Below, piece after piece: positions 12,694-57,462 of a stretch of DNA of 64,000 nt. Position numbers and translations under genes: made by a program. The first letter of the stretch is position 1. Every line of letters begins with the position of its first letter. Location of the stretch: NCBI RefSeq assembly GCF_016026235.1, contig NZ_CP065613.1. One strand, written 5' to 3'. The notes under the pieces are model-generated. The model ran no database searches, was not told where the DNA came from, and saw only the letters and a list, made by a program, of their open reading frames with translations. The DNA comes from Escherichia coli (GTDB lineage Bacteria; Pseudomonadota; Gammaproteobacteria; Enterobacterales; Enterobacteriaceae).

Positions 12694-12768
12694 AAAAATT
12701 CGTTGTCAGGATAAGGACAATCAATAAAGGACTTCTGTATGAGTCATACAGAAAGAACAGGATTTTAA

Positions 12769-16646: not shown

Positions 16647-16659
16647 AAAGCGCCATGTG

Positions 16660-16866: not shown

Positions 16867-16879
16867 TAGTTAATAGCTC

Positions 16880-18163: not shown

Positions 18164-18208
18164 AGGTTGCTCCGGGCTATGAAATAGAAAAATGAATCTG
18201 TTGAAGCC

Positions 18209-18300
18209 TGCTTTTTATACTAAGTTGGCATTATAAAAAAGCATTGCTTATCAATTTGTTGCAACGAACAGGTCATTATCAGTCAAAATAAAATCATTAT
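18209..18300. other. attL: lambda-type core plus phage P' arm
   Basis: GCTTTTTATACTAA core followed by GTTGGCATTATAAAAAAGCATTGCTTATCAATTTGTTGCAACGAACAGGTCA... with Int arm-type site CAGTCAAAAT. Confidence 0.8.
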
Positions 18301-19367
18301 TTGATTTCAATTTTGTCCCACTCCCTGCCTCTGTCATCACGATACTGTGATGCCATGGTGTCCGACTTGTGCCCGAGAAGATGTTGAGCAAACTTATCGC
18401 TTATCTGCTTCTCATAGAGTCTTGCAGACAAACTGCGCAACTCGTGAAAGGTAGGTGGATCCCCTTCGAAGGAAAGACCTGATGCTTTTCGTGCGCGCAT
18501 AAAATACCTTGATACTGTGCCGGATGAAAGCGGTTCACGACGAGTAGATGCAATTATGGTTTCTCCGCCAAGAATCTCTTTGCATTTATCAAGTGTTTCC
18601 TTCATTGATATCCCGAGAGCATCAACATGCAATGTTGTAGGGATGGCAATTTTTACGCCTGTTTTGCTTTGCTCGACATAAAGATATCCATCTACGATAT
18701 CAGACCACTTCATTTCGCATAAATCACCAACTCGTTGCCCGGTAACAACAGCCAGTTCCATTGCAAGTCTGAGCCAACATGGTGATGATTCTGCTGCTTG
18801 ATAAATTTTCAGGTATTCGTCAGCCGTAAGTCTTGATCTCCTTACCTCTGATTTTGCTGCGCGAGTGGCAGCGACCGGGTTTGTTGTTATATGGCCTTCA
18901 GCTATTGCCTCTCGGAATGCATCGCTCAGTGTTGATCTGATTAACTTGGCTGATGCCGCCTTGCCCTCGTCTATGTATCCATTGAGCATTGCCGCAATTT
19001 CTTTTGTGGTGATGTCTTCAAGTGGAGCATCAGGCAGCCCCCTCCTTATTGCTTTAATTTTGCTCATGTAATTTATGAGTGTCTTCTGCTTGATTCCTCT
19101 GCTGGCGAGGATTTTTTCGTAGCGATCAAGCCATGAATGTAACGTAACAGAATTATCACTGTTGATTCTCGCTGTCAGAGGCTTGTGTTTGTGTCCTGAA
19201 AATAACTCAATGTTGGCCTGTATAGCTTCAGTGATTGCGATTCGCCTGTCTCGGCCTAATCCAAACTCTTTACCCGTCCTTGGGTCCCTGTAGCAGTAAT
19301 ATCCATTGTTTCTTATATAAAGGTTAGGGGGTAAATCCCGGCGCTCATGACTTCGCCTTCTTCCCAT
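18297..19367 (-). CDS. int: Integrase (tyrosine recombinase), lambda Int type
   Basis: 356 aa starting MGRRRSHERRDLPPNLYIRNNGYYCYRDPRTGKEFGLGRDRR..., recognised as lambda Int. Confidence 0.95.
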   Translation of the reverse strand: MGRRRSHERRDLPPNLYIRNNGYYCYRDPRTGKEFGLGRDRRIAITEAIQANIELFSGHKHKPLTARINSDNSVTLHSWLDRYEKILASRGIKQKTLINYMSKIKAIRRGLPDAPLEDITTKEIAAMLNGYIDEGKAASAKLIRSTLSDAFREAIAEGHITTNPVAATRAAKSEVRRSRLTADEYLKIYQAAESSPCWLRLAMELAVVTGQRVGDLCEMKWSDIVDGYLYVEQSKTGVKIAIPTTLHVDALGISMKETLDKCKEILGGETIIASTRREPLSSGTVSRYFMRARKASGLSFEGDPPTFHELRSLSARLYEKQISDKFAQHLLGHKSDTMASQYRDDRGREWDKIEIK

Positions 19368-19563
19368 TTCTGATCCTCTTCAAAAGGCTACCTGTTACTG
19401 GTCGATTTAAGTCAACCTTTACCGCTGATTCGTGGAACAAATACTCTCTTCCATCCTTAACCGGAGGAGGGAATATCCTGCACTCGCGTACCCATCGACG
19501 AACTGTTTCAAGGCTCCTTGGGCGTCGCTGGCGTGCGTTCCACTCCTGAAGTGTCAAGTACAT
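19345..19563 (-). CDS. xis: Excisionase
   Basis: 72 aa MYLTLQEWNARQRRPRSLETVRRWVRE..., lambda Xis; overlaps the int start. Confidence 0.9.
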   Translation of the reverse strand: MYLTLQEWNARQRRPRSLETVRRWVRECRIFPPPVKDGREYLFHESAVKVDLNRPVTGSLLKRIRNGKKAKS

Positions 19564-19647
19564 CGCAAAGTCTCCGCAATTACTCGCAAGGGAGCGAGTA
19601 TTGGTTTATTTTCTCCAACAAAAAAGGAGCCGAAGCTCCTTTGATGA

Positions 19648-20271
19648 TTAAAATTCGAATTGTCTCGCCCGAAGGCTTTTCAGCATTGGTTTTGCCCGTT
19701 CGAAAAGGGCGCTTGCTTGGTCAAGTCGTGTCGCCTCCCTTAGCAGTACATCTCTGTTTTTCGTCACCGTGTAAAAAGTTTCAAACGCGATGTCATACAG
19801 CTTGCTCGTGTATGATGAGTTCAGTTCCTTCAATATCGGGTACAGACGTTTGCAGATGTCCTGCGCATTCTCCATCTGTACCTGCATATAGCAAAGGAGG
19901 ATGATTTCTTCGTCTGTGAATTGCTGCGCTGGTTGCATGCTGCGAAGTTTCTTTTCGCACTCGATGAAGTATCGGCGTATCTGGCGGCCTTTTTCGTTAC
20001 GCTCGACCATCGCCGTTTCTTTGGCTGTATCGAGGGTGAGGTGATAGTCTTTGCTACGGCGATCGCCTCCACGTCCTTTGATCCCCCTGTTTTGGTGAAC
20101 CAAAATGTAATCGACATCAACGGCAAAGCCGTATTCTGTTATGCGATTTTTAATCCATGTAGAGAAGTCACGACGTACTTCCAAAAATTCGTGTAAATCA
20201 CGGGCATTAACGAGAAGAGTTGTTTCGTTGGATATAGTGCCGTTGAATACGGGGATGAGTTGACTGGTCAT
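19648..20271 (-). CDS. AntA/AntB-type antirepressor-like protein
   Basis: 207 aa; LLVNARDLHEFLEV...DFSTWIK motif typical of the AntA domain. Confidence 0.45.
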   Translation of the reverse strand: MTSQLIPVFNGTISNETTLLVNARDLHEFLEVRRDFSTWIKNRITEYGFAVDVDYILVHQNRGIKGRGGDRRSKDYHLTLDTAKETAMVERNEKGRQIRRYFIECEKKLRSMQPAQQFTDEEIILLCYMQVQMENAQDICKRLYPILKELNSSYTSKLYDIAFETFYTVTKNRDVLLREATRLDQASALFERAKPMLKSLRARQFEF

Positions 20272-32031: not shown

Positions 32032-34938
32032 ATGAGGCCAAGTGAACTTAGCGACCTGCTTTGGGCGCAGGTTGACAGGGTGGCTCCGCACCTGTTGCCA
32101 AATGGCAAGAAAGAGGGGCATGAGTGGGTTGCCGGTAACGTCAACGGTGACAAGGGAAACAGCCTTAAGGTCAACCTTAGCGGCAAGAAAAAATGGGCTG
32201 ATTTCGCTGAGGGAGACGGCGGTGACATGCTTGATTTGTGGATGGCATGTCGTGGAATTAACCTGCATCAGGCTATGCAGGAAGCGAAAGCATTTCTCGG
32301 TATCAAGGATGACGATCACCATTTCGATGCCAGACGTGAGAAGAAATTCTCCAGACCTGATCGCAAGAAAATCGCCCGCTACGTTACCAGAACAGAATCC
32401 CATCTTGAGTACCTGCAATCGCGTGGCATATCGCCAGAAGTCGTAAAGCGCTACGAGGTTGTCAGCGGCAAGGTGTGGAATGGAGAACGAGAACTGGATG
32501 CTCTGGTGCTTCCGTACAAACGCGATGGTGAGTTGTTGCAGGTCAAGCGAATCAGCACTGAGCGCCCGGACGGGAAGAAAGTCATTATGGCAGAAGGTGA
32601 TTGCGAACCTTGTCTGTTCGGATGGCAGGCTCTGGACGCTGGCGTGAGGGCGGTTGTACTTTGCGAAGGCGAAATTGATTGTATGAGCTATGCGCAATAC
32701 GGCATCTCGGCGTTATCCGTGCCGTTTGGTGGCGGGAAAGGCGCTAAGCAACAGTGGATTGAGTTTGAGTATCACAACCTCGACAGGTTTGAGGAAATAT
32801 TCATCTCGATGGACGTTGATGATGTTGGTCGTGAAGCCGCAAGGGAAATCGCAAGCCGACTCGGTGAACATCGTTGCCGTCTTGTTACTCTGCCGTACAA
32901 AGACATCAACGAATGCCTGATGAACGGTGTTACCGAGGATGAAATCTGGCAGTACATCGGCACGGCATCCTACTTTGATCCTGAAGAACTCTACAGCGCG
33001 CGAGAGTTTTACCAGGACACTATCAACGCTTTCTACAGCAAGCAGCAGTATCTGTTTAATCCACCGTGGGAATCTCTGGCAGATAAATTCCAGTTCCGTG
33101 AGGCCGAGTTGACGCTGGTCAATGGTGTGAACGGTCACGGAAAGGCATGCCCACTGAATGAGCCTATTCTTTTAGCTGATGGGACATGGACTACTCACGG
33201 GAATGTAAAAATTGGCGATCAGGTGGCGTCAGTAGACGGCAATCCGTCAACTGTCACTGGGATATTCCCGCAGGGTGTTAGAGATGTTTACCGAGTCACA
33301 TTTGAAGATGGTCGTTATGTTGATTGCGCAGGCGATCACCTATGGGAGGTCACTAGTCGTGGATTCACGAAAGGCGAGAAACGCCGCGTGATAGATACCT
33401 TCGGGTTGAAGCGGTTGAGTGAAACGAAGAGGCACAAAAATGGCGTTAGGATTCCTGAAATAACTGGTGACTTTGGCGACCACTCAGAGCCATTAGCATG
33501 GGTTATCGGCTCCCTTCTCGGGGATGGTAGTCTTAGCAATGGGAGCGTGAAGTTTTCAAACGTCGAGCCATACATGATCGAGCGTATGAAGGCTGAACTG
33601 CCTGATTACAACTTCTCTGGAGATGGTAAGGACTGGCTGATATCAACGGCGCGTGGTCAGGTAAATCCACTCATGGAGACCCTGCGAGGTTATGGACTAA
33701 TGGGGTGCACAGCAAAAAACAAATTCATCCCTCGTGTGTTTTTTTCCGCAAATAAATCAACGCGTATAGGCATGCTGTGTGGTCTGCTTGAAACGGATGG
33801 GTATGTCGAGAAGGATGGAACGCTTGTTTTTTCCTCAGCAAGTGAAGAACTGCGCAATGGGGTTGTTCAACTGGTTAACTCACTCGGCGGGTCATGCCGG
33901 ACGCGAGTTAAAACTGGCGTGACATACACATACAAGGACGATAAGCGGCATGGGATGGATTCATACGAGGCAAGAATCAGACTGACAAGAGAAATCAGGG
34001 AGGCCATCCGTTCACCACGACTCAATGGCAGATTAACTGCGCATCGATTCGAGGGCTGTGGGGTATTCGTCAGGAATGTTGAAAAAATCGGCAATGCAGA
34101 ATGCTTGTGTATTATGGTCGATCACCCTCGCCACCTGTATGTAACCAGGGGATATGTGGCGACGCATAACACCGAGGTTGTCGGGCATATGGCACTTGAG
34201 GCAATGCGTCAGGGTGTGAAGACGTGCATCGCGTCACTTGAGCTGAAGCCTGGTATTCTCCTTAAGCGCCTTACCCGTCAGGCGACGTGCTGCAAGATTC
34301 CGCCAGTGCTGGAAATTGACTCTGCATTTAAATTTTATGACGAAAGACTTTGGGTGTTTGGCCTGACCGGAACGGCGAAAGCCGACAGGCTGATCGAAAT
34401 ATTCGACTACGCTCGCCGCCGATACGGGATCCAGTTATTCATCATCGACAGCCTGATGAAATGTGGCATAGGCGACGATGACTATAACGGGCAGAAGGCG
34501 TTTGTTGACTCGATTTGCGACTTCAAAAACAAAACAAACTCCCACGTCATTCTCGTTACTCACTCGCGAAAAGGAGACAGCGAAGAAAAACCAACCGGGA
34601 AAATGGACGTAAAAGGCTCTGGAGCGATAACAGACCTGACAGACAACCTTTTCATCATCTGGCGTAACAAGGCTCGCGAGAGAGCGTTACAGAGAGTTCA
34701 GAGTGGTGAAAAGATGTCAGAGAAGGACGAACAGCTACTGGCATCTCCGGCATCTGTTTTAATGCTTGAAAAACAACGTAACGGCGAAGGTTGGGAAGGT
34801 GGTGTCCCGTTGTTCCTTGACGAGCAATCGCACCAGTTCCTGCAACTTGAATCAGGATCGCCATATAGCTACATCGCCAATATGCCGAAATCGGAATATG
34901 ACGAGGCGTGGCGACAGGAAAACGTGACGGAGTATTAA
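32032..34938 (+). CDS. Primase-helicase (toprim primase plus DnaB-like helicase) containing an intein
   Basis: 968 aa; toprim motifs (VVLCEGEIDCMS, FISMDVDDVG); helicase P-loop GVNGHGKA and Walker B-like LFIIDSL; intein inserted after GKA. Confidence 0.8.
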   Translation: MRPSELSDLLWAQVDRVAPHLLPNGKKEGHEWVAGNVNGDKGNSLKVNLSGKKKWADFAEGDGGDMLDLWMACRGINLHQAMQEAKAFLGIKDDDHHFDARREKKFSRPDRKKIARYVTRTESHLEYLQSRGISPEVVKRYEVVSGKVWNGERELDALVLPYKRDGELLQVKRISTERPDGKKVIMAEGDCEPCLFGWQALDAGVRAVVLCEGEIDCMSYAQYGISALSVPFGGGKGAKQQWIEFEYHNLDRFEEIFISMDVDDVGREAAREIASRLGEHRCRLVTLPYKDINECLMNGVTEDEIWQYIGTASYFDPEELYSAREFYQDTINAFYSKQQYLFNPPWESLADKFQFREAELTLVNGVNGHGKACPLNEPILLADGTWTTHGNVKIGDQVASVDGNPSTVTGIFPQGVRDVYRVTFEDGRYVDCAGDHLWEVTSRGFTKGEKRRVIDTFGLKRLSETKRHKNGVRIPEITGDFGDHSEPLAWVIGSLLGDGSLSNGSVKFSNVEPYMIERMKAELPDYNFSGDGKDWLISTARGQVNPLMETLRGYGLMGCTAKNKFIPRVFFSANKSTRIGMLCGLLETDGYVEKDGTLVFSSASEELRNGVVQLVNSLGGSCRTRVKTGVTYTYKDDKRHGMDSYEARIRLTREIREAIRSPRLNGRLTAHRFEGCGVFVRNVEKIGNAECLCIMVDHPRHLYVTRGYVATHNTEVVGHMALEAMRQGVKTCIASLELKPGILLKRLTRQATCCKIPPVLEIDSAFKFYDERLWVFGLTGTAKADRLIEIFDYARRRYGIQLFIIDSLMKCGIGDDDYNGQKAFVDSICDFKNKTNSHVILVTHSRKGDSEEKPTGKMDVKGSGAITDLTDNLFIIWRNKARERALQRVQSGEKMSEKDEQLLASPASVLMLEKQRNGEGWEGGVPLFLDEQSHQFLQLESGSPYSYIANMPKSEYDEAWRQENVTEY
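33148..34170 (+). other. Intein (341 aa) with LAGLIDADG homing-endonuclease domain
   Basis: Starts CPLNEPILLADGTW...IGDQVASVDG, two LAGLIDADG-type blocks (LAWVIGSLLGDGSL, GMLCGLLETDGYV), ends ...VATHN followed by Thr. Confidence 0.75.
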
Positions 34939-35914: not shown

Positions 35915-36219
35915 TTAAGGATGAGGCTGAATTTCTTCAGGTCGGTATTTTGTTGAGAGATGAGAGATGTCAACTTCTCTCTCTGCTTTTTCAAGACTCC
36001 ATGCCATCTGAAGACGAATCCATGAGGCCGGAGTTCCTCCAAGAACGGCGGCGAGACGAACAGCCATTTCAGGAGAGATTGCCGCATTTCCTGAAACCAG
36101 TCGCTGAACAGTGGAAGGCGCAACATCAAGCGCTCTTGCCAGCTCTCTGATCCCAATATTCTGATCTTCCAGAATATCCGCAATAATTTCTCCTGGATGA
36201 GGGGGTTAAACATCGTCAT
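35915..36219 (-). pseudogene. higA: HigA antitoxin (HTH), frameshifted near its start
   Basis: HTH frame encodes PPHPGEIIADILEDQNIGIRELARALDVAPSTVQRLVSG... but the only start codon is one base out of frame across a C5 run; the 123-aa ORF-track product is the out-of-frame read-through. Confidence 0.6.
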
Positions 36220-36497
36220 TAATGGTAATCCTCGTAGTTAAGAATATAAGCGTCACCGTCACGAAACTCGAAGGTGATCCTCCAGTTACCGGAGACGGAG
36301 ACAGACCACGTATCGGCCCTGTCTCCTTGCAACTGGTGCAGCCTGTAACCGGCAAGGTTAATATCATCAATGATTTCGGCTTGATCTATCACCTGAAGGC
36401 GCATTCTAAGGCGTTTAACATGATTGGGATTTACGCCTGATGCACTTCCAGTTTCAAAGAAACGTTGAAGTCCTTTGTGTTTCCAGCTTTTTATCAT
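36219..36497 (-). CDS. higB: HigB toxin (RelE/ParE superfamily)
   Basis: 92 aa from ATG 36497 with AGGAAACA upstream; MIKSWKHKGLQRFFETGSASGV...GNWRITFEFRDGDAYILNYEDYH matches HigB. Confidence 0.8.
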   Translation of the reverse strand: MIKSWKHKGLQRFFETGSASGVNPNHVKRLRMRLQVIDQAEIIDDINLAGYRLHQLQGDRADTWSVSVSGNWRITFEFRDGDAYILNYEDYH

Positions 36498-36833
36498 GTT
36501 TGTTTCCTGTTGCGTTACGCGAATCATTATAGAGTGTGTTGTGTCATTCGCAACCGTTGGTTTGACAAAAACACATATCCGGGGCTATATTCCCTGAACG
36601 CCAGCAAATCTGGCGTCGGGATTGGCGTCCCGGATATCGAAACGGTGCATAACCGCGCTGGCGGTTTTTTTATGCGCTAAGCACAGTCACATTCGCGATT
36701 TATGGTGGGCTGTGTGGGGGAGTTGAGAGACTCGCCGGATGTTTCGACCGGTTACGCCAACCCTGCACAGTTCACCACCCAGCGATTGGCGTCGCAGGTG
36801 GTGAGTTAAAAACCATCGAAACGCGAGGTCGTT

Positions 36834-37520
36834 ATGACTGTTCAGATTTCTGTCAAAAACCTTTCCCCTGTTACCTATAACCAGATTCCGGTAATCACAA
36901 CTGAGTTGCTTGCCCGCCTTTATGGAACAGAAACAATCCGTATACAGCAGAATCACCATGAAAATAAATCTCGGTTTATTGAGGGAAAGCACTTCTTTAA
37001 AGCTGTTGGTGATGAACTCAGAAATTTGCGACTAGTTTTAAACGAGTCGCAAAATGAGGTGAAAATCTCTCCCAAAACCCGCTCGCTCATCCTCTGGACA
37101 GAACGAGGCGCAGCCCGCCACGCAAAAATGCTCGAAACCGATCAGGCGTGGGAAGTGTTCGAAAAACTGGAAGACTGCTATTTCAGCCAGACTTCGAAAA
37201 GCGCAGGTCATCACGAGAAGAAAACCAGCGAGCTTTCTGCAAAAGATGCAAACAGTCTGGTATGGTTGTGGGATTATGCCAACCGCTCACAGGCATTATT
37301 CCGCGAACTGTATCCGGCGCTAAGACAAATTCAGTCTAACTATTCCGGCAGATGCCACGACTACGGTCATGAGTTCTCGTATGTTATCGGAATGGCGAGA
37401 GACGTTTTAATCAATCACACACGAGATGTTGATATTAATGAGCCAGACGGACCAACGAATCTTTCTGCATGGGTAAGACTTAAGAACAAAGAATTACCTC
37501 CTTCACTACATCACTACTGA
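36834..37520 (+). CDS. ORF6N-domain protein (antirepressor N-terminal domain family)
   Basis: 228 aa; N-terminal 120 aa paralogous to the ORF at 20593-21375. Confidence 0.5.
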
Positions 37521-37587
37521 CAGATTGCCAACGCAACGACCCAGCTTCGGCTGGGTTTTTATTGCTGAATTTTCAATATGAGAGGAC

Positions 37588-37848
37588 ATGACAATGAACG
37601 AGCTGATAAATAGCAACGCCATTAAAATGACCAGCATTGAAATCGCTGAGTTGGTGGGTAAGCGTCATGACAATGTGAAACGTACCATCGAAACGCTGGT
37701 TAAAAGTGGAGTTATCCGGCTTCCTCAAATTGAGGTTTCCGAAAGAATCAATAACTTAGGGTTCAATGTTCAGTACGAGCATTACGTCTTCGAAGGCGAA
37801 CAAGGTAAGCGCGACAGCATTATTGTCGTTGAAGGAGGTGTTGCATGA
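37588..37848 (+). CDS. Rha-like small regulatory protein
   Basis: 86 aa with MTSIEIAELVGKRHDNVKRTIETL motif. Confidence 0.4.
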   Translation: MTMNELINSNAIKMTSIEIAELVGKRHDNVKRTIETLVKSGVIRLPQIEVSERINNLGFNVQYEHYVFEGEQGKRDSIIVVEGGVA

Positions 37849-38615
37849 ATGCCGTAATTATTGCCAACGCAGAAATCGTGCCGATTGAGTTTAATGGCGA
37901 GCGTGTTGTTACGTATCAAATGATTGCTGATATTCACGGGGTTCCAGTAGCCACTATTCAAAATGGCTATGCGCGAAACTCTGAGTATTTCATAGACAGG
38001 GAAGATACATATTTTATTGATTTTCATGAAAATACCTTTAGAAGGGGTTTTGAAATTCCTCCTCGTGGCATGCGAGTTTTCACTGAATCAGGCTATTTGA
38101 TGCTGGTTAAAACCCTGCGCGACGAGACGGCGTGGAGAGTGCAACGTGAGCTTGTTCGCAATTATTTTCGTGGCCAAAAAGAAGATAAGTCAGCCTTGCC
38201 CGACTTCACAAACCCTGCTGAAGCCGCCAGAGCGTGGGCAAACGAATATGAGCAGAAAGTGAAGCTGGAGCAACAACTCGCGATTGCCGCACCTAAAGTT
38301 GAGTTTGCCGATCGCGTTGGCGAGGCCAGCGGAATTTTGATTGGAAACTTTGCAAAGGTTGTTGGTATTGGCCCAAACAAACTGTTTGCGTGGATGCGTG
38401 ATCACAAAATCCTTATTGCTTCAGGTTCCCGGCGCAATGTGCCAATGCAGGAATATATGGATCGCGGCTATTTCACAGTGAAAGAAACAGCGGTCAACAC
38501 AAATCACGGAATACAGATATCGTTCACCACAAAAATCACCGGGCGTGGTCAACAGTGGCTGACCAGAAAGCTGCTCGATAACGGAATGCTGAAAGTAACA
38601 GGGGAGGCTGCATGA
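37845..38615 (+). CDS. Phage antirepressor (ORF6N N-terminus plus KilAC-like C-terminus)
   Basis: 256 aa; coupled to neighbouring genes. Confidence 0.55.
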   Translation: MNAVIIANAEIVPIEFNGERVVTYQMIADIHGVPVATIQNGYARNSEYFIDREDTYFIDFHENTFRRGFEIPPRGMRVFTESGYLMLVKTLRDETAWRVQRELVRNYFRGQKEDKSALPDFTNPAEAARAWANEYEQKVKLEQQLAIAAPKVEFADRVGEASGILIGNFAKVVGIGPNKLFAWMRDHKILIASGSRRNVPMQEYMDRGYFTVKETAVNTNHGIQISFTTKITGRGQQWLTRKLLDNGMLKVTGEAA

Positions 38616-38974: not shown

Positions 38975-39159
38975 ACGCCACAATTCAAACGATACCAGAG
39001 CTTCTTATCCAGACACGAGGCAATCAGACCGAAGTGGCGAGGATGCTTTCCTGCGCAAGAGGAACAGTGCTCAAGTACAACCGAGACAGCAAAGGCGAGC
39101 GTCACGTAATAGTTAACGGCGTCCTGATGGTCAAACAGGGCAAGAGGGGAAGACGATGA
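38971..39159 (+). CDS. ninH: NinH
   Basis: 62 aa; GNQTEVARMLSCARGTVLKY motif as in lambda NinH. Confidence 0.7.
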   Translation: MNATIQTIPELLIQTRGNQTEVARMLSCARGTVLKYNRDSKGERHVIVNGVLMVKQGKRGRR

Positions 39160-39779
39160 GACTCGAAAGCGTAGCTAAATTTCATTCGCCAAAAAGCCCG
39201 ATGATGAGCGACTCACCACGGGCTACGGCTTCTGACTCTCTTTCCGGTACTGATGTGATGGCTGCTATGGGGATGGCGCAATCACAAGCCGGATTCGGAA
39301 TGGCTGCATTTTGCGGTAAGCATGAACTCAGCCAGAACGACAAACAAAAGGCTATCAACTATCTGATGCAATTTGCACACAAGGTATCGGGGAAATACCG
39401 TGGTGTGGCAAAGCTCGAAGGAAATACTAAGGCAAAGGTACTGCAAGTGCTCGCAACATTCGCTTATGCGGATTATTGCCGTAGTGCCGCGACGCCGGGC
39501 GCAAGATGCAGAGATTGCCACGGAACAGGTCTGGCAGTTGATATAGCCAAAACAGAGCAGTGGGGGAGAGTTGTCGAGAAAGAGTGCGGAAGATGCAAAG
39601 GTGTCGGCTATTCAAGGATGCCAGCAAGTGCAGCATATCGCGCTGTAACGATGCTAATCCCAAACCTCACCCAACCCACATGGTCACGCACTGTTAAGCC
39701 GCTGTATGACGCTCTGGTGGTGCAATGCCACAAAGAAGAGTCAATCGCAGACAACATTTTGAATGCGGTCACACGTTAG
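39156..39779 (+). CDS. Q: Late antiterminator Q (lambda type)
   Basis: 207 aa MRLESVAKFHSPKSPMMSDSPRATASDSLSG..., recognised as lambda Q. Confidence 0.95.
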   Translation: MRLESVAKFHSPKSPMMSDSPRATASDSLSGTDVMAAMGMAQSQAGFGMAAFCGKHELSQNDKQKAINYLMQFAHKVSGKYRGVAKLEGNTKAKVLQVLATFAYADYCRSAATPGARCRDCHGTGLAVDIAKTEQWGRVVEKECGRCKGVGYSRMPASAAYRAVTMLIPNLTQPTWSRTVKPLYDALVVQCHKEESIADNILNAVTR

Positions 39780-40039: not shown

Positions 40040-40114
40040 GGGTCAGTCGTATAAAGGTCATTACGGAAGGCTGTTAACCTTCTTATCGTGGTTCGAGTCC
40101 ACGCTGTCCCGCCA
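40040..40114 (+). tRNA. tRNA-like gene, anticodon GTT (Asn) by manual fold; possibly degenerate
   Basis: Cloverleaf: acceptor GGGTCAG/CTGTCCC (one mismatch), 3-bp D stem, anticodon stem GAAGG/CCTTC with loop CTGTTAA, T arm CGTGG-TTCGAGT-CCACG, 3' CCA. Confidence 0.45.
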
Positions 40115-40119
40115 AATAT

Positions 40120-40195
40120 GCTGGTTTAGCTCTAATGGTAGAGCAGTCGCCTTGTAAGCGAATGGGTAGCGGTTCAAGTCCGTTAACCAGCACCA
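40120..40195 (+). tRNA. tRNA, anticodon TGT (Thr) by manual fold
   Basis: Perfect acceptor stem GCTGGTT/AACCAGC, D arm GCTC-TAATGGTA-GAGC, anticodon loop CTTGTAA, T arm AGCGG-TTCAAGT-CCGTT, 3' ACCA. Confidence 0.55.
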
Positions 40196-40311
40196 TAACT
40201 GAGCCGTAGCCACTGGCTATCCTGAATTCATCAGTGACAGTTACGCTGCGGCCTTCTTTTCCCCTTCCCAATATAAGAACTACGCCATCCGTTATTTGCG
40301 GAGGTGAGGCT

Positions 40312-40527
40312 ATGAAATCCATGGACAAAATTTCAACGGGCATTGCCTACGGCACCTCCGCCGGCAGTGCCGGCTACTGGTTTTTGCAGTGGTTGGATCA
40401 GGTCAGTCCGTCACAGTGGGCTGCGATTGGTGTGCTGGGAAGTCTGCTTCTGGGGCTTCTGACTTATCTGACAAATCTGTATTTCAAAATAAGAGAAGAC
40501 AAGCGTAAGGCTGCGCGGGGAGAGTAA
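40312..40527 (+). CDS. S: Pinholin (phage 21 S-type holin)
   Basis: 71 aa [30 protein letters not shown]... with dual-start motif; GGAGGTGAGG upstream. Confidence 0.85.
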
Positions 40528-40531
40528 TTCA

Positions 40532-41062
40532 ATGACACAAAACTATGAACTGATTGTGAAAGGGATCCGCAATTTTGAGAATAAAGTTGCGGTAACTTTA
40601 GCGTTACGGGACAAAAAACGCTTTGACGGTGAAATTTTTGACCTGGACATCTCGCTGGACCGTGTTGAAGGTGCCGCGCTGGAGTTTTATGAGGCAGCGG
40701 CCAGAATGAGAATCAGACAGGTATTCCTGGATGTTGCTGCCGGGTTATGTGAAGGGGATGAGCAGTCGCCGGAAAAGCGCCCCATAATTTTAGAGGCGCA
40801 GAATGTGTGGATAACCTACAAAGGAAAGCTACCGGGAAGAATTACTGGTTCTCTGAAGACGCCACCGACGGCATTGCGGTCAGAAAAAGATGATATTGAA
40901 TCGCCCATTGAAAAACTGGAGAAAAAATTGTCGGTGCTGATTCCTTCTGAAGATGAAAAAAAACGCCGCGATGAGCAGTTTGCGGCGTTTTACGATTATT
41001 GCATTGAAGTTACTCGCAGGAATTTTGTGAAGATTTTTGAGGAGGGTAAATCTCTTCAGTAA
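40532..41062 (+). CDS. Hypothetical protein (176 aa) inserted between holin and endolysin
   Basis: Starts 5 nt after the holin stop; charged, Lys/Glu-rich C-terminus; no family recognised. Confidence 0.45.
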   Translation: MTQNYELIVKGIRNFENKVAVTLALRDKKRFDGEIFDLDISLDRVEGAALEFYEAAARMRIRQVFLDVAAGLCEGDEQSPEKRPIILEAQNVWITYKGKLPGRITGSLKTPPTALRSEKDDIESPIEKLEKKLSVLIPSEDEKKRRDEQFAAFYDYCIEVTRRNFVKIFEEGKSLQ

Positions 41063-41276
41063 GCTTAATGGCGGACGCTGCAATTAATTCAGGAAGGTCC
41101 GCAAGGTCATCTGTCAGTGGATATGATGAAAAATCGGCGGCAGTTCTGTTAAGAAGCGCTTTAACTAATTCCTTTTCCTTCTCCGGCAACAAGTTGATTA
41201 GAGCTACGACTGCTTGCCTGAGTGCGATTAAATCAGCAAAAGTTTGTTTTGGTAGATTTGTGTAATCCGTAGTCAC
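41010..41276 (-). CDS. Hypothetical small protein, convergent with the preceding gene
   Basis: 88-aa ORF with GTG start and weak RBS; overlaps the 3' end of the 176-aa gene. Confidence 0.2.
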   Translation of the reverse strand: MTTDYTNLPKQTFADLIALRQAVVALINLLPEKEKELVKALLNRTAADFSSYPLTDDLADLPELIAASAIKLTEEIYPPQKSSQNSCE

Positions 41277-41383
41277 CTCTGTGTTTATCAGATTGACATC
41301 CTCCTCCCGCCAGTGCCCATCACTGGCGAGGTAAGATTTAACATATCCGGGGATTTGAAGCCGATAAATCCTGATAAATATCC

Positions 41384-41917
41384 ATGAACGTAAAAATCAG
41401 ATATGGCCTGTCGGCTGCCGTTCTGGCACTGATTGCTATCGGTGCGCCTGCGCCTGATATTCTCGACCAGTTTCTGGATGAAAAAGAAGGTAACCACACT
41501 ACGGCATACCGCGATGGTTCCGGCATCTGGACCATCTGTCGGGGTGCCACGATGGTGGATGGTAAACCCGTTTTTCCCGGTATGAAACTGTCGAAGGAAA
41601 AATGCGACCAGGTTAACGCCATTGAACGTGATAAGGCGCTGGCATGGGTGGAGCGCAATATTAAAGTACCACTGACCGAACCACAAAAAGCGGGTATAGC
41701 GTCATTTTGCCCCTATAACATTGGCCCCGGTAAGTGTTTCCCGTCGACGTTTTATAAGCGGCTGAATGCCGGTGATCGTAAGGGCGCATGCGAGGCGATT
41801 CGCTGGTGGATAAAAGATGTTGGGCGCGATTGCCGCATACGTTCAAATAACTGCTATGGACAGGTTATTCGTCGTGACCAGGAAAGCGCATTAGCCTGTT
41901 GGGGGATAGATCAATGA
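41384..41917 (+). CDS. R: SAR endolysin (GH24 lysozyme with N-terminal signal-anchor-release helix)
   Basis: 177 aa; hydrophobic Ala/Gly-rich N-terminus ([15 protein letters not shown]) then lysozyme catalytic region. Confidence 0.85.
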
Positions 41918-42351
41918 GCAGAGTCACCGCGATTATCTCCGCTCTGGTTATCTGCATCATCGTCTGCCTGTCATGGGCTGTTAATCATTACCGTGATAAC
42001 GCCATTACCTACAAAGAGCAGCGCGATAAGGCCACATCCATCATCTCTGATATGCAGAAGCGTCAACGTGATGTAGCAGAACTCGACGCCAGATACACAA
42101 AGGAGCTTGCTGATGCTAACGCGACTATCGAAAGTCTCCGTGCTGATGTTTCTGCTGGTCGTAAGCGCCTGCAAGTCGCCGCCACCTGTGCAAAGTCAAC
42201 GACCGGAGCCAGCAGCATGGGCTATGGAGAAAGCCTAGGACTTACAGCAGATGCTGAACTCAATTATTACCGTCTCCGAAGTGGAATCGACAGGATAACC
42301 GCGCAGGTTAACTACCTGCAGGAATACATCAGGACGCAATGCCTGAAATAA
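41914..42351 (+). CDS. Rz: Spanin, inner-membrane subunit (Rz)
   Basis: ATG overlaps the endolysin stop; N-terminal TM helix then coiled coil. Confidence 0.8.
42113..42238 (+). CDS. Rz1: Spanin, outer-membrane lipoprotein subunit (Rz1), embedded in Rz in the +1 frame
   Basis: 41 codons [33 protein letters not shown]... with lipobox-like VSAC and proline-rich mature region. Confidence 0.55.
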
Positions 42352-42553
42352 TTTTTTTGCAAATCACAAAGTCAATTTAATGAGCCTCGCACTTGCGGGG
42401 CTTTTATATGTCCGCAGTAAACCGCGCATCGCAGCGCGTAACAATCCCGAGTCTTTCAGAAAGCTGAGCCTGAGAACTGCCGTATATGGTGGCGACCATC
42501 TCGGGGCGGCTTTTCTGTGCGAACAGGCTCATCTTTCTAAAAGGTAAGACGCT

Positions 42554-42614
42554 ATGAATATCGTTCCACTGAATTACAAAGGCGAACCTATCCGCTTCAA
42601 TACTGATGGCTGGA
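42554..42614 (+). pseudogene. KilA-N/Bro-N domain protein, 5' portion (split by IS600)
   Basis: MNIVPLNYKGEPIRFNTDGW then the IS left end. Confidence 0.55.
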
Positions 42615-42657
42615 TGAGGTGTACTGGCAATAGCGGACACTACCATTTGTTCTTTTT

Positions 42658-43476
42658 TTAAGCAGCCATCTGATGATATTTTTCCCTGAAGGCTGCCGGG
42701 GAGATATTCCCCAGACGAGAGTGACGACGCTGACGATTGTAGAAAATCTCAATGTATTCCCGTATTACTGAGATGGCTTCATCCCGGTTATTAAAACGAT
42801 AGTGGCTCAGGCTCTCATTTTTCAGCGTTCCCCAGAAGCTTTCCATCGGAGCGTTGTCGTAACAGTTACCTTTACGCGACATTGATGTTTTCAGACCAAA
42901 CTGCTCCTGTATGACCCGGTAATCGTATGCGCAGTACTGTGAACCTCGATCAGAGTGGTGGATTAGCCCGGCAGGTGGGCGCTGGCTCCTGAGCGCCATA
43001 AACAGGGCTTTACCTGTCAGCTCTTTTGTCATGCGCTCTCCCATGGCGTAGCCGACAATTTCGCACGTATAAACATCTTTGATGCCAGCGAGGTACAACC
43101 ATCCCTCCTGTGTGGCAACATACGTCAGGTCCGCCACCCAGACCTGATTTGGTGCTGTAGGAGCGAACGTCTGGTTCAGCAGATTTGGCGCAACTGGCAG
43201 ATTGTGGTTCGGGTTCGTAGTCGCTCTGAACTTGCGTTTCTGCTTACAGCGTAGCCTTAGCTCCTTACGAAGACGTGCCAGTCGGTCACGACCAACGATG
43301 ATGCCATTCTCTGCCAGCTCCGTCTGGAGCCGCCGGGTTCCATATGTTTCGCGAGTGCGGATATGTGCCACCTTAATCTCCAGTTTTAGCCGCTCATCAC
43401 TTTGTTTTCTGTCTGAGGGTTCATGCTGTACCCAGTTGTAATAACCGCTCCTGGATACACCAAATACCTGACACAT
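42658..43476 (-). CDS. IS3-family transposase OrfB (DDE integrase domain)
   Basis: 272-aa ORF with DDE motif region; normally expressed as an OrfAB fusion by -1 frameshift. Confidence 0.85.
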   Translation of the reverse strand: MCQVFGVSRSGYYNWVQHEPSDRKQSDERLKLEIKVAHIRTRETYGTRRLQTELAENGIIVGRDRLARLRKELRLRCKQKRKFRATTNPNHNLPVAPNLLNQTFAPTAPNQVWVADLTYVATQEGWLYLAGIKDVYTCEIVGYAMGERMTKELTGKALFMALRSQRPPAGLIHHSDRGSQYCAYDYRVIQEQFGLKTSMSRKGNCYDNAPMESFWGTLKNESLSHYRFNNRDEAISVIREYIEIFYNRQRRHSRLGNISPAAFREKYHQMAA

Positions 43477-43525
43477 CGCTTCAATGGGAAATTGTTGTCG
43501 CCATTGTTCGATTAACGCGTATTTT

Positions 43526-43813
43526 TCAGCGACTCCTGTGCAAAATACGCTGTTGCTTTTTTAATATATCTCGCTCAAGGCGAGCTTCATTTAACGCCTT
43601 ACGCAGTTGCAGAATTTCAGATTCCAGTTCAGCCACCGTGCGGGAGCCAGGAGTACCGAGCCCTTTTCTGGCGGCGGTAACCCATTGTCCTAAAGTGCCT
43701 TCAGGAAGGGATAATCGGGAAGCGCCTTCACTGATCGAAAGTTGATTTTCAAGAACCGTTCTGACAGCTTCGGCTTTGAACTCTTTAGAGTAACGTTGGG
43801 TTTTTCTGCTCAT
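43526..43813 (-). CDS. IS3-family transposase OrfA (HTH)
   Basis: 95 aa with HTH and leucine zipper; slippery TTAAAAAAG near its 3' end. Confidence 0.85.
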   Translation of the reverse strand: MSRKTQRYSKEFKAEAVRTVLENQLSISEGASRLSLPEGTLGQWVTAARKGLGTPGSRTVAELESEILQLRKALNEARLERDILKKQQRILHRSR

Positions 43814-43877
43814 TATTAGCTCCTTCTGATGCCATTCTATTTCAGGAAGGAGTGTCCGTTAAACTCAGGCTACCTCA

Positions 43878-44341
43878 GGATTAATGCCACTGATATTGCA
43901 AAACGTTTCGGGAAGCGTCTGGATCACTGGTTGTCCAACGCTGAAACTCTCGAATACGTTAGAGCTCTGGATGAGGTTTATTCAGGTGAACCATCGAAAA
44001 TTCTACATACCCGTGATTCCGGGTATGTAAAAACAAGCAAGGCACGAAAGGACAGGGGCGGCGGAACATGGCAGCATCCAAAGTTATCAGTTGCCTTTGC
44101 AAGATGGTGCGATCCGAAATTCTCCGTATGGTGCGACCTGCACATTGATAGTCTGCTTCGCGGTGAACTGACTGAGCAGCAGAAATATGAGCAAGCATGT
44201 CGCATTCGCGATGACCGGAAATCAAAAGCCAGCAATGGGGCAAGAGAGATGGCTCGCTGGCGATGGGATAAGCCGGTTATTGAAGCAAATGTCGAGTACT
44301 GGCGCGAGCAACTGCAGTTGACTCTCGATATCGCGTGCTGA
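43878..44341 (+). pseudogene. KilA-N/Bro-N domain protein, 3' portion
   Basis: Continues in frame after the IS and one TSD copy: INATDIAKRFGKRLDHWLSNAETLEYV... Confidence 0.55.
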
Positions 44342-45014
44342 TGGCAAACGCAAAACTGCGTTATCGGAAAAATCAAAGCATTACGAGAACTGAGCAACAG
44401 CTATCCATTACAAAGTCCATCTACGGGTGGGCTTGATAATGGCTTATACCCTACACGGGATAACTTAACTGATATCCCTTTTAACGGATAAAGGTATTCA
44501 GGCCTGACACATCATGCGCTGTATCGTCGCTGTATTCCCGCATTAACCATGACCGTAGCCCGACGGGGAACTCCTTCTGCGCGAGTGTGCGGGAATAATC
44601 AAAAACGATGCACACCGGGTTTTTACCGCGTTTATGGTTCGCGGGTTTGTCCCTCATGCTCGCCAGTCCTGTGCGGGGGTGGAAGAAACAGGACACTTAC
44701 ACTGATTCTTGTGGGTACGATGCTATTCCTTTCTGGATTATCCCGATGTCATTCATGCAGGGCGCTGTATCAGACGTTCGTCATGGCTGTCAGGCTGACG
44801 GGTCCTCCCGGTGGGGTGGCCTGCCACGGGGCGGGAGCGGCGCGGAAAAAGGCTAGTTTTTGAAATTTCATTCGTCATCACCACTACTGTAATGTATTGA
44901 TATTACAGTGGTTTTATTTTTGTGCTGTCGGTTTTGATTGTTTTTTGTTCATCACTAACACCGTTTGCCTAAAGTTGTTCGCAAGATGCATGTTTAAAAC
45001 ATTCTGGAGCGGGT

Positions 45015-45508
45015 ATGGATCGAGAGTTAAAAAATCTGACGCTGAATATCAGTCAACTGGCGGCACTGTCAGGTGTACATCGCCAGACTGCTGCGGCAAG
45101 GCTGCAAAATCTACCCGTTGCAGGGGGCATGAAAGCAACCTCAAGCTTTATCGGGTGGTTGATATTGTGTCGGCATTTCTGGCATTACCACCGCCGGTTG
45201 CAGAAGGCGAAATGGACGCGCATGAGCGCAAAGCCTGGTATCAGTCTGAACGTGAGCGTCTTAAGTTCGAACAGGAAACGGCACAACTCATTCCGGCCAG
45301 TGATGTCAGACGGGAGTTTGCCATCTGGGCAAAAGCGGTCGTGCAGGTGCTGGAGACATTACCGGATATTCTTGAACGTGACTGCGGTCTGCAGCCTGCC
45401 GCTGTGAGCCGTGTTCAGTCCATTATTGATGATCTGCGCGATCAGATAGCCCTGCGGGTGACTGAAGCAGGTGCGGATGATGAGGAGGAATTACAGCAGG
45501 AGGAGTAA
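45015..45508 (+). pseudogene. Terminase small subunit, apparently frameshifted at a G5 run
   Basis: N-terminal HTH part (MDRELKNLTLNISQLAALSGVHRQTAAARLQNLPVAGG) in one frame, acidic C-terminal part ending at 45508 in another; switch near GCAGGGGGCATG about 45125. Confidence 0.5.
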
Positions 45509-47610
45509 TGCTGAATCAGGAAACCGCAAAGGCAGCACGAACCGATTCAGGTTATATCCTTCGCGCACCAAGACGAATGCGGGTTGCTGATGCCGTTGCT
45601 CAGTATATGCGGGTGCCCATGGGGGCAGGGAACTCAGTCCCGTGGGATCCGCTGGTGGCACCGTATGTTATTGAGCCGATGAACTGCCTGGCCTCGCGTG
45701 AATACGACGCAGTGATATTTGTTGGCCCGGCACGAACCGGCAAGACTATCGGCCTGATTGACGGCTGGGTGATTTACAACGTGATTTGCGATCCTGCTGA
45801 TATGCTGATCATTCAGATGACGGAGGAAAAAGCCCGCGAACACTCCAAAAAACGACTCGCCAGAACGTTTCGCGTCAGCCCGGAAGTGGTCAGTCGCCTG
45901 AGTCCGAACAAAAATGACAACAACGTTTATGACAGAACATTCCTTGCTGGCAACTACCTGAAAATCGGCTGGCCGTCAGTCAATATCATGTCCTCATCAG
46001 ATTATAAATGCGTCGCGCTGACGGATTATGACCGTTTTCCGGAAGATATTGATGGTGAGGGGGATGCTTTCTCTCTTGCCTCAAAACGTACCACAACATT
46101 TATGTCCAGTGGTATGACGCTGGTGGAGAGTTCCCCCGGCAGGGATGTGAAGGATGTGAAATGGCGACGGACTTCACCGCATGAGGCTCCACCAACCACG
46201 GGGATACTGTCGCTCTATAACCGTGGCGATCGCCGTCGCTGGTACTGGCCCTGTCCACACTGTGGTGAGTATTTTCAGCCCTGCGGCGATGTGGTTGCTG
46301 GTTTCCGTGATATTGCCGATCCCGTGCTGGCAAGTGAGGCGGCTTATATTCAGTGTCCTTCCTGTTCAGGACGGATTATGCCTGAACAAAAACGTGAGCT
46401 GAACGGACGTGGGGTCTGGTTGCGGGATGGTGAATCCATCAATGCGGATGGCAGTCGTTATGGTGATCCCAGGCGTTCACGTATTGCGTCATTCTGGATG
46501 GAGGGTCCGGCAGCTGCTTACCAGACACTCTCGCAACTCGTTTACAAACTGCTTACTGCAGAACAGGAATACGAGACAACCGGAAGTGAAGAAACACTCA
46601 GGGCGGTTATCAACACCGACTGGGGATTACCTTATCTTCCCCGCGCCAGCATGGAGCAACGAAAAAGTGAACTGCTTGAGCAGCGGGCAGAGCCTGTTCC
46701 TCCCCGCTGCGTGCCGGATGGTGTTAATTTCCTGGCGGCGACAGTGGATGTGCAGGCGGGACGTCATCGCCGTTTTGTGGTTCAGGTAACGGGTTATGGT
46801 TGCCGTGGCGAACGCTGGATTATTGATCGTTACAACATCACGCAGTCATTGCGTTGTGACAACAACGGAGAAAGCCTGCGAATTGATCCTGCTGGTTATC
46901 CTGAGGACTGGGATGTCCTGCTGACGGATGTTTTTCATAAAAGCTGGCCGTTGGCCTCCGATCCTTCTCAACAAATGCGACTGATGGCAATGGCGGTGGA
47001 CTCCGGCGGTGAAGACGGGGTCACTGATAATGCCTATAAATTCTGGCGTCGTTGCCGTCGTGATGGCCTTGGTAAACGTATTTACCTGTTTAAGGGCGAC
47101 AGCATCCGGCGCGCAAAACTGATCACCCGTACATTCCCTGATAACACCGGACGAACGGGCCGACGGGCGCAGGCCGCAGGTGATGTGCCGCTCTGGCTTC
47201 TTCAGACGGATGCCCTGAAAGACCGGGTGAATAACGCGTTATGGCGTGACTCGCCAGGTCCCGGCTATGTGCATTTCCCTGACTGGCTGGGGAGCTGGTT
47301 TTACGACGAACTGACGTATGAAGAGCGGAGCAGTGACGGGAAATGGAGTAAGCCGGGTCGAGGTGCCAACGAAGCTTTTGACCTGATGGTGTATGCCGAG
47401 GCTCTGGTCATTCTGCATGGTTACGAGAAAATTCAGTGGCCGGATGCGCCGGAATGGGCATGCAGGGAAACCTGGCTGGAGCGTGTCAGGGACGATGCCG
47501 GACTGTCAGCCTCGCCGGAGCCGGTATCCGTGTCCGTTAAAAAAAAGAAACGAAAAAAAGTGGTGCCTGATGAAGAAAACCCATGGGTGACTTCCGGAGG
47601 ATGGTTGTGA
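45508..47610 (+). CDS. Terminase large subunit (GpA family)
   Basis: 700 aa; Walker A (VGPARTGKT), large size, position before the portal gene. Confidence 0.9.
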   Translation: MLNQETAKAARTDSGYILRAPRRMRVADAVAQYMRVPMGAGNSVPWDPLVAPYVIEPMNCLASREYDAVIFVGPARTGKTIGLIDGWVIYNVICDPADMLIIQMTEEKAREHSKKRLARTFRVSPEVVSRLSPNKNDNNVYDRTFLAGNYLKIGWPSVNIMSSSDYKCVALTDYDRFPEDIDGEGDAFSLASKRTTTFMSSGMTLVESSPGRDVKDVKWRRTSPHEAPPTTGILSLYNRGDRRRWYWPCPHCGEYFQPCGDVVAGFRDIADPVLASEAAYIQCPSCSGRIMPEQKRELNGRGVWLRDGESINADGSRYGDPRRSRIASFWMEGPAAAYQTLSQLVYKLLTAEQEYETTGSEETLRAVINTDWGLPYLPRASMEQRKSELLEQRAEPVPPRCVPDGVNFLAATVDVQAGRHRRFVVQVTGYGCRGERWIIDRYNITQSLRCDNNGESLRIDPAGYPEDWDVLLTDVFHKSWPLASDPSQQMRLMAMAVDSGGEDGVTDNAYKFWRRCRRDGLGKRIYLFKGDSIRRAKLITRTFPDNTGRTGRRAQAAGDVPLWLLQTDALKDRVNNALWRDSPGPGYVHFPDWLGSWFYDELTYEERSSDGKWSKPGRGANEAFDLMVYAEALVILHGYEKIQWPDAPEWACRETWLERVRDDAGLSASPEPVSVSVKKKKRKKVVPDEENPWVTSGGWL

Positions 47611-54535: not shown

Positions 54536-57462
54536 TTTGGGGATTGATGCGGCAGAGTTTAAAAATGAAATTCCCCGTATCAAAAACCTTCTGAATGGTG
54601 CAGCCAGCGATGCAGAACGGTCTTCTGCCCGTATGCAGCGTTTTATGGAGCGTCAGACTCAGGCCGCCCGGCAGACAACGCAGGCGGCTTCTTCGGCTGC
54701 AACAGCCGCATCCGTCCATGCGCAGACGGTGGAGAAGAACGCACAGGCTCATGAACGCATGGCCCGCGAGGTGGAGAAAACCCGCCAGCGCATGGAGGCG
54801 CTGAGCCAGAAAATGCGCGAGGAACAGGCGCAGGCCAGGGCACTGGCGGAGGCGCAGGATAAAGCGGCTGCCGCCTTTTATCGCCAGATTGACAGTGTGA
54901 AACAGGCCGGTGCGGGGCTTCAGGAATTACAGCGTATTCAGCAGCAGATCCGACAGGCCAGAAACAGTGGCGGGGTTGGTCAGCAGGATTATCTGGCGCT
55001 GATTTCGGAGATCACGGCGAAAACCCGTGCCCTGACGCAGGCAGAGGAACAGGCCACCCGGCAGAAAGCGGCGTTTATCCGCCAGCTTAAAGAGCAGGCA
55101 ACCCGCCAGAATCTGTCGTCTTCTGAGTTGCTTCGCGCCAGGGCGGCTCAGCTGGGGGTAAGCAGTGCTGCAGAAGTGTATATCCGCAAAATGGAGCGGG
55201 CAGGAAAAGCCACACATTCGCTGGGGCTGAAAAGTGCGGCAGCCCGGCGGGAGCTGGGGGTGTTAATCAGTCAGATGGCGCGCGGCAATTTTGGTGCGCT
55301 GAGGGGATCCGGGATAACGCTGGCTAACCGTGCCGGATGGACAGGCGCACTGATGTCGCCGAAAGGCATGATGACTGGCGGCGTTATTGGCGGACTTGTC
55401 GCGGCGGTCCTGGGTCTGGGTAAAGCCTGGCATGACGGCCGGAAGGAGGGCGAGGAATTTAACCGTCAGCTGGCGCTGACGGGACATTATGCCGGTGTCA
55501 CTGTCGGGCAGTGGGGCATTTCATGGAAACGATATTGGTATGGTGGCGAAAGCTGCCGCACAGATGGAGCGATCGGTTGGCCAGTCGGTCAGCGATACCA
55601 TAAATCAGTTTAAGCGGCTGAAGGATGATCCTGTAAATGCCGCGAAGGCGCTGGACAATGCGCTGCATTTTTGACTGCCACTCAGCTTGAGCAGATACGC
55701 GTCCTTGGGGAGCAGGGGCGGTCCAGTGATGCGGCCCGGATCGCCATGTCTGCGCTGGCAGAGGAAACCGGTAAACGCACATCTGATATTGATAATAATC
55801 TCAATGCGCTGGGTAGTACGCTGCAAACCTTGTCTGACTGGTGGAAGCAGTTCTGGGATGCGGCCATGAATATTGGTCGTGAAGACTCGCTGGATGCGCA
55901 GATTGATGCGTTACAGGAAAAAATTCAGCGCGCGAAAAAATATCCGTGGACAAACGCCTCCACACAGGTGGAGTACGATCAGCAGCGTCTTAACGATCTT
56001 CAGGAGAAAAAACGCCGGAAGGATTTGCAGGATGCAAAAGCGCAGGCAGAACGGAATTACCAGGAGCAACAGAAACGCCGGAATGCTGAAAATGCCGCGC
56101 TGAACCGGATGAATGAAACGGAAGCTGCACGACATCAGCGGGAAATTGCGCGTATTAATGCCATGCAGTACGCCGACCAGGCTGTCAGGGATGCGGCGAT
56201 ACAGCGTGAAAATGAACGTTACGAAAAAGCCATTAAGAAAAATACACGGGCAACCCGTAATGATGAGGCCACCCGGTTATTGCTGCAGTACAGTCAGCAG
56301 CAGGCACAGGTGGAAGGGCAGATTGCTGCTGCCAGACAGTCAGCAGGCATTGCCACTGAAAGGATGACTGAAGCGCATAAACAGCTTCTGGCCCTGCAGC
56401 AGCGCATCAGCGACCTGGGCGGGAAAAAGCTGACGGCAGATGAAAAGAGTGTGCTGGCCCGTAAGAATGAGCTGATTCAGGCGCTGACGCTGCTGGATGT
56501 GAAACAGCAGGAGCTGCAGAAACAGACAGCGCTTAACGACCTGAGAAAAAAACGGTTCAGCTGACCAGCCAGCTGGCAGACAAAGAACGTGCACTGCGTG
56601 AGCAGCACAATCTGGATATTGCCACTGCAGGTATGGGGGATAAGCAGCGGCAGCGCTACCAGGCACAGTTGCGCATCCGGCAGGAATACCGGCAACAGTT
56701 GCAACAGCTTGAGAATGACAGTCGCCAGAAAGGCACTTACGGGACGGAGGACTACCGGAGGGCTGAGGAGGTGCTGAAGGGGAGCCTGAAGCGACAACTG
56801 AATGAAAACAAACGCTACTGGCAGGAACTGGAAGTGGCGCAGGGCGACTGGAAAAACGGTGCCATGCGGGCGTTTCAGAATTTTACGGCGGATGCGGATA
56901 ATGCGGCGGGAACGGCAGAACAGATGTTTACAGTGGCATTCAGCAGTGCCGGTAATGCACTGGCGACATTCTGTACCACCGGTAAGCTGAATTTTAAATC
57001 CTTTACCTCTTCCCTGTTGTCAGATATGGCCAGAATTATGGCACAGATGGCCATGATGCAGGCGGTAAAGGGCGTCGGTTCTTTATTCGGCTTCACGACT
57101 AATGCTGATGGCGGTGTTTACCAGTCTGCTGATTTGAGTCGCTACAGTGGCACGGTGGTTAACCGTCCGACGTTTTTTGCTTTTGCAAAAGGCGCGGGTG
57201 TGATGGGGGAAGCGGGACCTGAAGCCATTCTGCCACTGCGTCGCGGTGCTGATGGTAAGCTGGGGGTGTGGCGGATACTGGTGGTTCAGGCATGGTGATG
57301 TTTGCCCCGCAGTACAACATTGAGATCAATAACGATGGCACGAACGGGCAGATAGGTCCGGCTGCCCTGAAGGTGGTTTATGACCTCGGGAAAAAAGCGG
57401 CCGCGGACTTTATGCAACAGCAGGCCCGTGATGGTGGCCGGTTAAGTGGAGCATACCGGTAA
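54507..57462 (+). pseudogene. H: Tail tape measure protein H, fragmented by about four frameshifts
   Basis: Tape-measure-like Ala/Gln-rich sequence distributed over five frames (ORFs 54477-55613, 55489-55674, 55671-56564, 56633-57298, 57268-57462); switches at G-run about 55505, T5 at 55672, A7 at 56555, G5 at 57280. Confidence 0.7.

Follow-up and report, generated by a model that had tools for sequence, protein, structure and literature searches.

IS600 insertion in a prophage KilA-N gene of an ipaH-positive Escherichia coli genome

The window analyzed here, meaning the whole stretch of 64,000 nucleotides, holds a lambdoid prophage whose integrase, based on homology to the genome of FDAARGOS_943, adjoins ybhC. 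A Q antiterminator gene (39156-39779) is followed by tRNA-Asn and tRNA-Thr (40040-40195) and by genes for a P21-type holin (40234-40527), a lysozyme (41384-41917) and an Rz-type lysis protein (41899-42351). Next comes an interrupted KilA-N gene (42554-44341), and DUF1441, terminase, portal, capsid and tail genes up to J occupy the remainder of the window (44.9-64 kb). With the Rz lysis gene on one side and the DUF1441/terminase genes on the other, the KilA-N gene lies in the prophage late operon. Stx2 phages matched the early region of the prophage, and no stx gene was found between Q and the lysis genes. An intact ipaH gene coding for an effector with LRR_TTSS and NEL E3 ligase domains is encoded on the minus strand (6760-8586), beside tail-fibre and DNA-invertase remnants of another prophage and directly before pgl, ybhH, ybhI and ybhC. 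The presence of ipaH marks the host genome as being of the Shigella/EIEC type.

The KilA-N gene is split by an insertion sequence of 1263 bp as sequenced (42615-43877, minus strand), which starts with TGAGGTGTACTGG and ends with CAGGCTACCTCA. Its right terminal inverted repeat (IRR, orfB-distal, minus strand, 42615-42641) reads TGAGGTGTACTGGCAATAGCGGACACT on the plus strand and its left terminal inverted repeat (IRL, orfA-proximal, minus strand, 43851-43877) reads TGAGGTAGCCTGAGTTTAACGGACACT on the minus strand. The two repeats are imperfect, with 19 of the 27 outermost positions agreeing when aligned by hand, and have the form TGAGGT...ACCTCA with 5'-TG...CA-3' tips, which are typical of the IS3 family. 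An automated inverted-repeat search of the IS600 ends returned no match, the repeats being too imperfect for its 9-nt seed. On the plus strand, the trinucleotide GGA directly precedes (42612-42614) and directly follows (43878-43880) the element, and the empty site contains a single GGA. A duplication longer than GGA is ruled out, as extension to 4 nt gives TGGA on one side and GGAT on the other. Because a 3-nt match alone has a 1/64 probability of arising by chance, the decisive evidence for a target duplication is the empty site described below. In four other IS600 copies located in unrelated sequence contexts, flanking sequences part exactly at TGAGG and past CCTCA, and three of the four are bordered by 3-bp duplications of their own (GGC, AAC and CAG), so that both the boundaries and the 3-bp convention are empirically established. 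The ends (TGAGGTG...TACCTCA), the length of 1263 bp and the flanking GGA duplication given in a preliminary description of the locus are thus correct, and the TG...CA tips and 3-bp duplication follow IS3-family conventions in the same way as other IS600 copies, though it should be noted that each of the five other full copies examined measures 1264 bp and that the present element is short by one A.

A search of 5426 complete E. coli genomes revealed 99.8% identity over the full length of the element (1263/1264 nt) to copies annotated as 'IS3-like element IS600 family transposase, programmed frameshift', with 1748 records containing a copy that spans at least 80% of the query. The element departs from the reference IS600 copy in only two places, by a single gap and by a synonymous G/A substitution at 43646. 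Judged by its nucleotide sequence against RefSeq copies annotated as IS600, the element is IS600 itself, which sharpens the earlier label of "IS600-like". IS600 belongs to the IS3 family, was first described in Shigella sonnei and is abundant in Shigella and EIEC. The element shares with IS600 not only its nucleotide sequence but also the orfA/orfB organization, the imperfect TG...CA inverted repeats and the 3-bp target duplication, and differs in its length of 1263 rather than 1264 bp, caused by one A fewer in a run of seven, and in the single synonymous substitution.

Both open reading frames of the element are encoded on the minus strand. Frame analysis places orfA at 43526-43813 and its product matches HTH_Tnp_1 (Pfam PF01527, E 1.3e-20); as sequenced, it comprises 95 aa with an altered C-terminus, compared with 100 aa in the reference copy with seven A residues (A7). 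The orfB gene (42658-43476, counted from its first ATG at 43476) encodes an HTH_21 domain (E 1.5e-13) and an rve integrase/DDE core (E 3.2e-26), with Pfam matches to PF13276, PF00665 (rve), PF13683 and PF13333, rve_2 and rve_3 included. The orfB frame stays open upstream of this first ATG, back to the slippery site. An OrfAB fusion modeled with A7 scored 412.8 bits against the NCBIfam model NF033516 (IS3 family transposase), for which the cut-off is 160.

The two flanks of the element represent the two parts of one gene, both on the plus strand. The 5' fragment (42554-42614) contains codons 1-20 plus one nucleotide and, as sequenced, continues from its 20 native residues into 15 IS-derived codons before reaching a stop. 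The 3' fragment (43881-44341) contains the rest of codon 21, codons 22-173 and the stop codon. When the element and one GGA are removed, a 173-aa open reading frame results that starts with the ATG at 42554, terminates at 44341 and reads ...FNTDGW|INATDIAKRFG... across the junction, bearing out the continuous KilA-N reading frame proposed in the preliminary description. The restored protein matches the Pfam KilA-N domain (PF04383) with 83.1 bits against a cut-off of 23.8 (E 1.5e-23), residues 7-114 aligning with positions 4-106 of the 107-position profile. It also matches PHROG 129, whose family label is 'transcriptional regulator', and has no match in NCBIfam.

Alignment to uninterrupted homologues confirmed this reconstruction. 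Intact alleles in E. coli prophages are colinear with the 553 nt restored in this way and align to them as one ungapped piece, with a best identity of 99.5%, and in 24 genomes at 99% identity or more the intact gene is annotated as 'KilA-N domain-containing protein'. The empty site of E. coli SCU-125, ...GATGGCTGGATTAATGCC..., contains GGA once only. The restored protein and the SCU-125 protein (WP_001028468.1) differ in a single residue (L85Q), and the SCU-125 gene likewise lies between lysis genes (Rz) and DUF1441/terminase genes. Compared with the KilA-N proteins of lambdoid prophages (PF04383), the present gene therefore occupies the same position and would encode an almost identical protein, but is broken after codon 20. 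Based on these alignments, the locus is a simple insertion into a formerly intact gene, whose sequence carries no other lesion.

The best overall explanation, to which we assign a probability of roughly 95%, is that IS600 transposed into codons 20/21 of a 173-codon prophage KilA-N gene and thereby inactivated it. By analogy with other members of the IS3 family, an OrfAB transposase would have been produced via -1 ribosomal frameshifting on the A-run, would have excised a copy of the element as a circular or figure-eight intermediate and would have pasted this copy into a staggered 3-bp cut, giving rise to the target duplication. Disruption of the KilA-N gene would be the direct consequence of this insertion.

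The one-base deficit of the element falls on the very run on which frameshifting would depend. The slippery A-run that serves as the programmed -1 frameshift site is located at 43551-43556 on the minus strand and consists of six A residues (A6), whereas the five other full copies carry A7 (TT A AAA AAA G). Specifically, the reference reads TT A AAA AAA GCA and the present element TTAAAAAAGCA. The orfB of the reference copy occupies the -1 frame, and slippage by -1 on A AAA AAA leads to ...ILKKKSNSVFCTG...; in the element as sequenced, orfB stands at +1 with respect to orfA, which ends with ...ILKKQQRILHRSR followed by a stop codon. With A6 placing orfB at +1, the OrfAB transposase could not be made by the usual -1 route from the element as sequenced. 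A stem-loop, GCGUAUUUU...AAAAUACGC, is predicted at 43514-43549 (minus strand), a few nucleotides 3' of the slippery run, and is a candidate frameshift stimulator. A hairpin a few nucleotides past a slippery run is in the typical place for such a stimulator. The MFE and centroid structures share its 9-bp core, the signal of the whole 101-nt piece being statistically weak (z = -1.7).

The missing A, as far as can be judged by sequence comparison, probably reflects an error of the assembly and not a genuine inactivating mutation. The same insertion is found in the assembly of strain ATM460, which is based on PacBio reads polished with Illumina reads. The comparison with ATM460 covers 40830-47340, and over these 6.5 kb there are no substitutions and two 1-nt gaps, both of them in homopolymers of which the window has the shorter version: T7 to T6 at 43556, which is the slippery run itself, and G6 to G5 at 45122. 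The loss at 45122 disrupts the DUF1441 gene (about 44.9-45.5 kb), while ATM460, LSGJ01 and FDAARGOS_943 have G6. In comparison with two independent relatives, the tape-measure gene is broken by three further 1-nt deletions (55667, 56545 and 57266), and another is located at 18211 relative to relatives. Altogether, there are six 1-nt deletions, mostly in homopolymers, and the window is shorter every time. In addition, some assemblies show A6 at three or four different IS600 loci in one genome, and A6 in several copies per assembly is the pattern that would be expected of a systematic consensus error. The A7 run of ATM460, the broken phage genes, the consistent direction of the length differences and the multi-copy occurrence of A6 all argue for an assembly error. 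The source assembly thus appears to hold 1-nt deletion errors that create false pseudogenes, the IS600 frameshift site included.

Alternatively, the missing A could be real. This IS600 copy would then be non-autonomous, unable to make its own transposase, encoding a tail-altered OrfA and perhaps OrfB by itself, though no -1 OrfAB, and could move only by means of transposase supplied in trans or by rare +1/-2 or transcriptional slippage. The window does read A6 with orfB at +1, A6 copies are present elsewhere in that five E. coli records are 100% identical to an 83-nt probe, the 95-aa OrfA variant of the A6 type is found in 236 blocks of a public collection, and homopolymer runs are natural mutation hot spots. 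However, the A7 run in the Illumina-polished copy of the same insertion, with zero substitutions nearby, stands against a real mutation, as do the five further 1-nt deletions, several of which break conserved phage genes, and the simultaneous presence of three or four independent A6 copies in some assemblies. We therefore consider a genuine loss of the A unlikely. A broader version of the same idea is that IS600 copies with the shorter run represent a recurrent natural class of self-silenced elements, mobilized in trans or by unconventional slippage. Such a class would fit the occurrence of A6 across many assemblies, including several A6 copies within some genomes, but strikes us as very unlikely.

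Returning to the consequences of the insertion of IS600 into the KilA-N gene, the element lies inside the Q-dependent late operon and antisense to late transcription. The 5' part of the gene encodes only 20 native residues and the 3' fragment has neither a start codon nor a ribosome-binding site of its own. A 170-aa chimeric frame (43829-44341, plus strand) reaches across the orfA-proximal end of the element, and in it 17 IS-derived residues are joined in frame to KilA-N residues 21-173. This frame lacks a Shine-Dalgarno sequence, the CTCCTT upstream of the ATG at 43829 being the complement of the orfA ribosome-binding site, and a promoter scan detected no plus-strand promoter at the orfA-proximal end of the IS. 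The scan gave a promoter-like match on the minus strand (43862-43834), just 5' of orfA, and as a whole performed no better than on shuffled sequence. Taken together, the short native 5' part, the 3' part without a start and the chimeric frame without Shine-Dalgarno sequence or promoter indicate that the KilA-N gene is very probably null.

It is conceivable that the insertion left the gene active, with the 170-aa chimera being translated from the IS-internal ATG at 43829 to yield an N-terminally remodeled KilA-N protein that keeps some activity. The frame is open and retains residues 21-173, it is called as a gene in five public assemblies and its product still matches the Pfam KilA-N domain. 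Apart from the missing translation and transcription signals, though, the 20 residues lost reach into the KilA-N domain, as the Pfam alignment begins at residue 7, and we regard an active chimera as highly improbable. Gene callers nevertheless present the IS/KilA-N fusion as an intact KilA-N protein, an annotation artefact that hides the pseudogene.

That the gene was instead split by homologous recombination between two IS600 copies, the site being the end-point of an inversion or deletion, has next to no probability, and the colinear empty site effectively refutes it. Genomes of Shigella and EIEC are rich in IS and do rearrange across IS copies, and one IS600 copy of FDAARGOS_943 lacks a target duplication. 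Here, however, a single gene supplies both flanks, its two halves point the same way and the 3-bp duplication is perfect, and Rz upstream and DUF1441/terminase downstream are ordered as in the intact prophage of SCU-125. A search of the 64-kb window found no second IS600 or other long repeat, and a composite transposon or an in-window recombination end-point is thereby ruled out.

The chimeric reading frame also allowed the distribution of the insertion to be traced. An identical 170-aa frame is encoded in five other NCBI assemblies, and since it requires IS600 at exactly this site, these five assemblies carry the same insertion. JAALAC01 is the EIEC O143:H26 strain ATM460 (= 69-3363), which belongs to phylogroup E and EIEC clade 1 (PMC8354535), and JTCO01 is the EIEC O143:H26 strain 4608-58 of the Walter Reed collection (PMC4319576). 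The same insertion was found in 0 of the 5426 complete E. coli genomes, and no record of a phage collection contains the IS600 insertion in KilA-N. A partial match to the junction in FDAARGOS_943 was rejected, because its IS600 is at a different site, beside a different KilA-N gene.

Based on these sequence searches, the insertion is lineage-restricted and evolutionarily young, and, being common to long-standing collection strains, it is not private to one strain. The preliminary description had called it "recent", which holds in the evolutionary sense, given its absence from the complete genomes, but not in the sense of an event confined to one strain, as five other assemblies share it. The insertion has become fixed within a clonal lineage, to which EIEC O143:H26 belongs. 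With its occurrence in none of the 5426 complete E. coli genomes and in five other assemblies, two of them EIEC O143:H26, the junction sequence GATGGCTGGA|TGAGGTG and TACCTCA|GGATTAATGCC could serve as a PCR or in-silico marker of the EIEC O143:H26 lineage.

What is described here is already known biology: a known element showing known behavior in a lineage famous for such behavior. The inactivation of prophage and chromosomal genes by IS600 is a documented hallmark of Shigella/EIEC genome decay. IS600 is one of five IS that are expanded in all Shigella species and EIEC (PMC7373316), and IS-mediated pseudogenization in Shigella and EIEC includes gene-inactivating insertions that are lineage-fixed as well as others that vary between strains (Hawkey et al. 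2020, PMC7373316). The present insertion is consistent with this IS expansion and gene decay. The convergent losses reported by Hawkey et al. 2020 (PMC7373316) concern metabolic or virulence-modulating genes, whereas the gene hit here is an accessory one belonging to a prophage.

How IS content varies between strains is exemplified by FDAARGOS_943, an ipaH-positive genome labeled E. coli that is 99.9% identical to positions 1-20000 of the window. Relative to the window, it carries three extra insertions: a LysR gene holds an IS1, the ybhJ hydratase gene an element of the IS5 family and an antA/antB gene an IS600.

Further features of the prophage were observed in the course of the analysis. 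A terminator-like hairpin of 9 pairs followed by TTATATG (42382-42403, plus strand) is located just past Rz, about 150 nt short of the KilA-N start, and suggests that the KilA-N gene may be transcriptionally separate from the lysis cassette unless Q antitermination acts. Relative to FDAARGOS_943 and GCA_021505815.1, the tail tape-measure gene lacks 83 bp at about 55506-55512, an out-of-frame deletion with the 7-bp direct repeat GGGCAGT at its borders. On account of these flanking repeats the deletion looks real, and the prophage may be tail-defective from this lesion and thus defective anyway. Upstream of Q, a gene for a HigB-like toxin of the RelE family is encoded on the minus strand (36219-36527, Pfam E 4e-21). 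Three consecutive antirepressor-like genes are also located 5' of Q (36834-38615, plus strand), with ORF6N+P22_AR_C domains, a short Rha-like fragment and ORF6N+KilAC/ANT domains, respectively, so that the prophage has several Ant/KilA-type modules besides the interrupted KilA-N gene. Finally, a 968-aa replication protein with a Toprim domain is encoded at 32032-34938 (plus strand); it also matches LAGLIDADG_3 and, below the Pfam cut-off, Hom_end_hint, and the gene, of the prophage primase/helicase type, probably contains an intein with a homing endonuclease.
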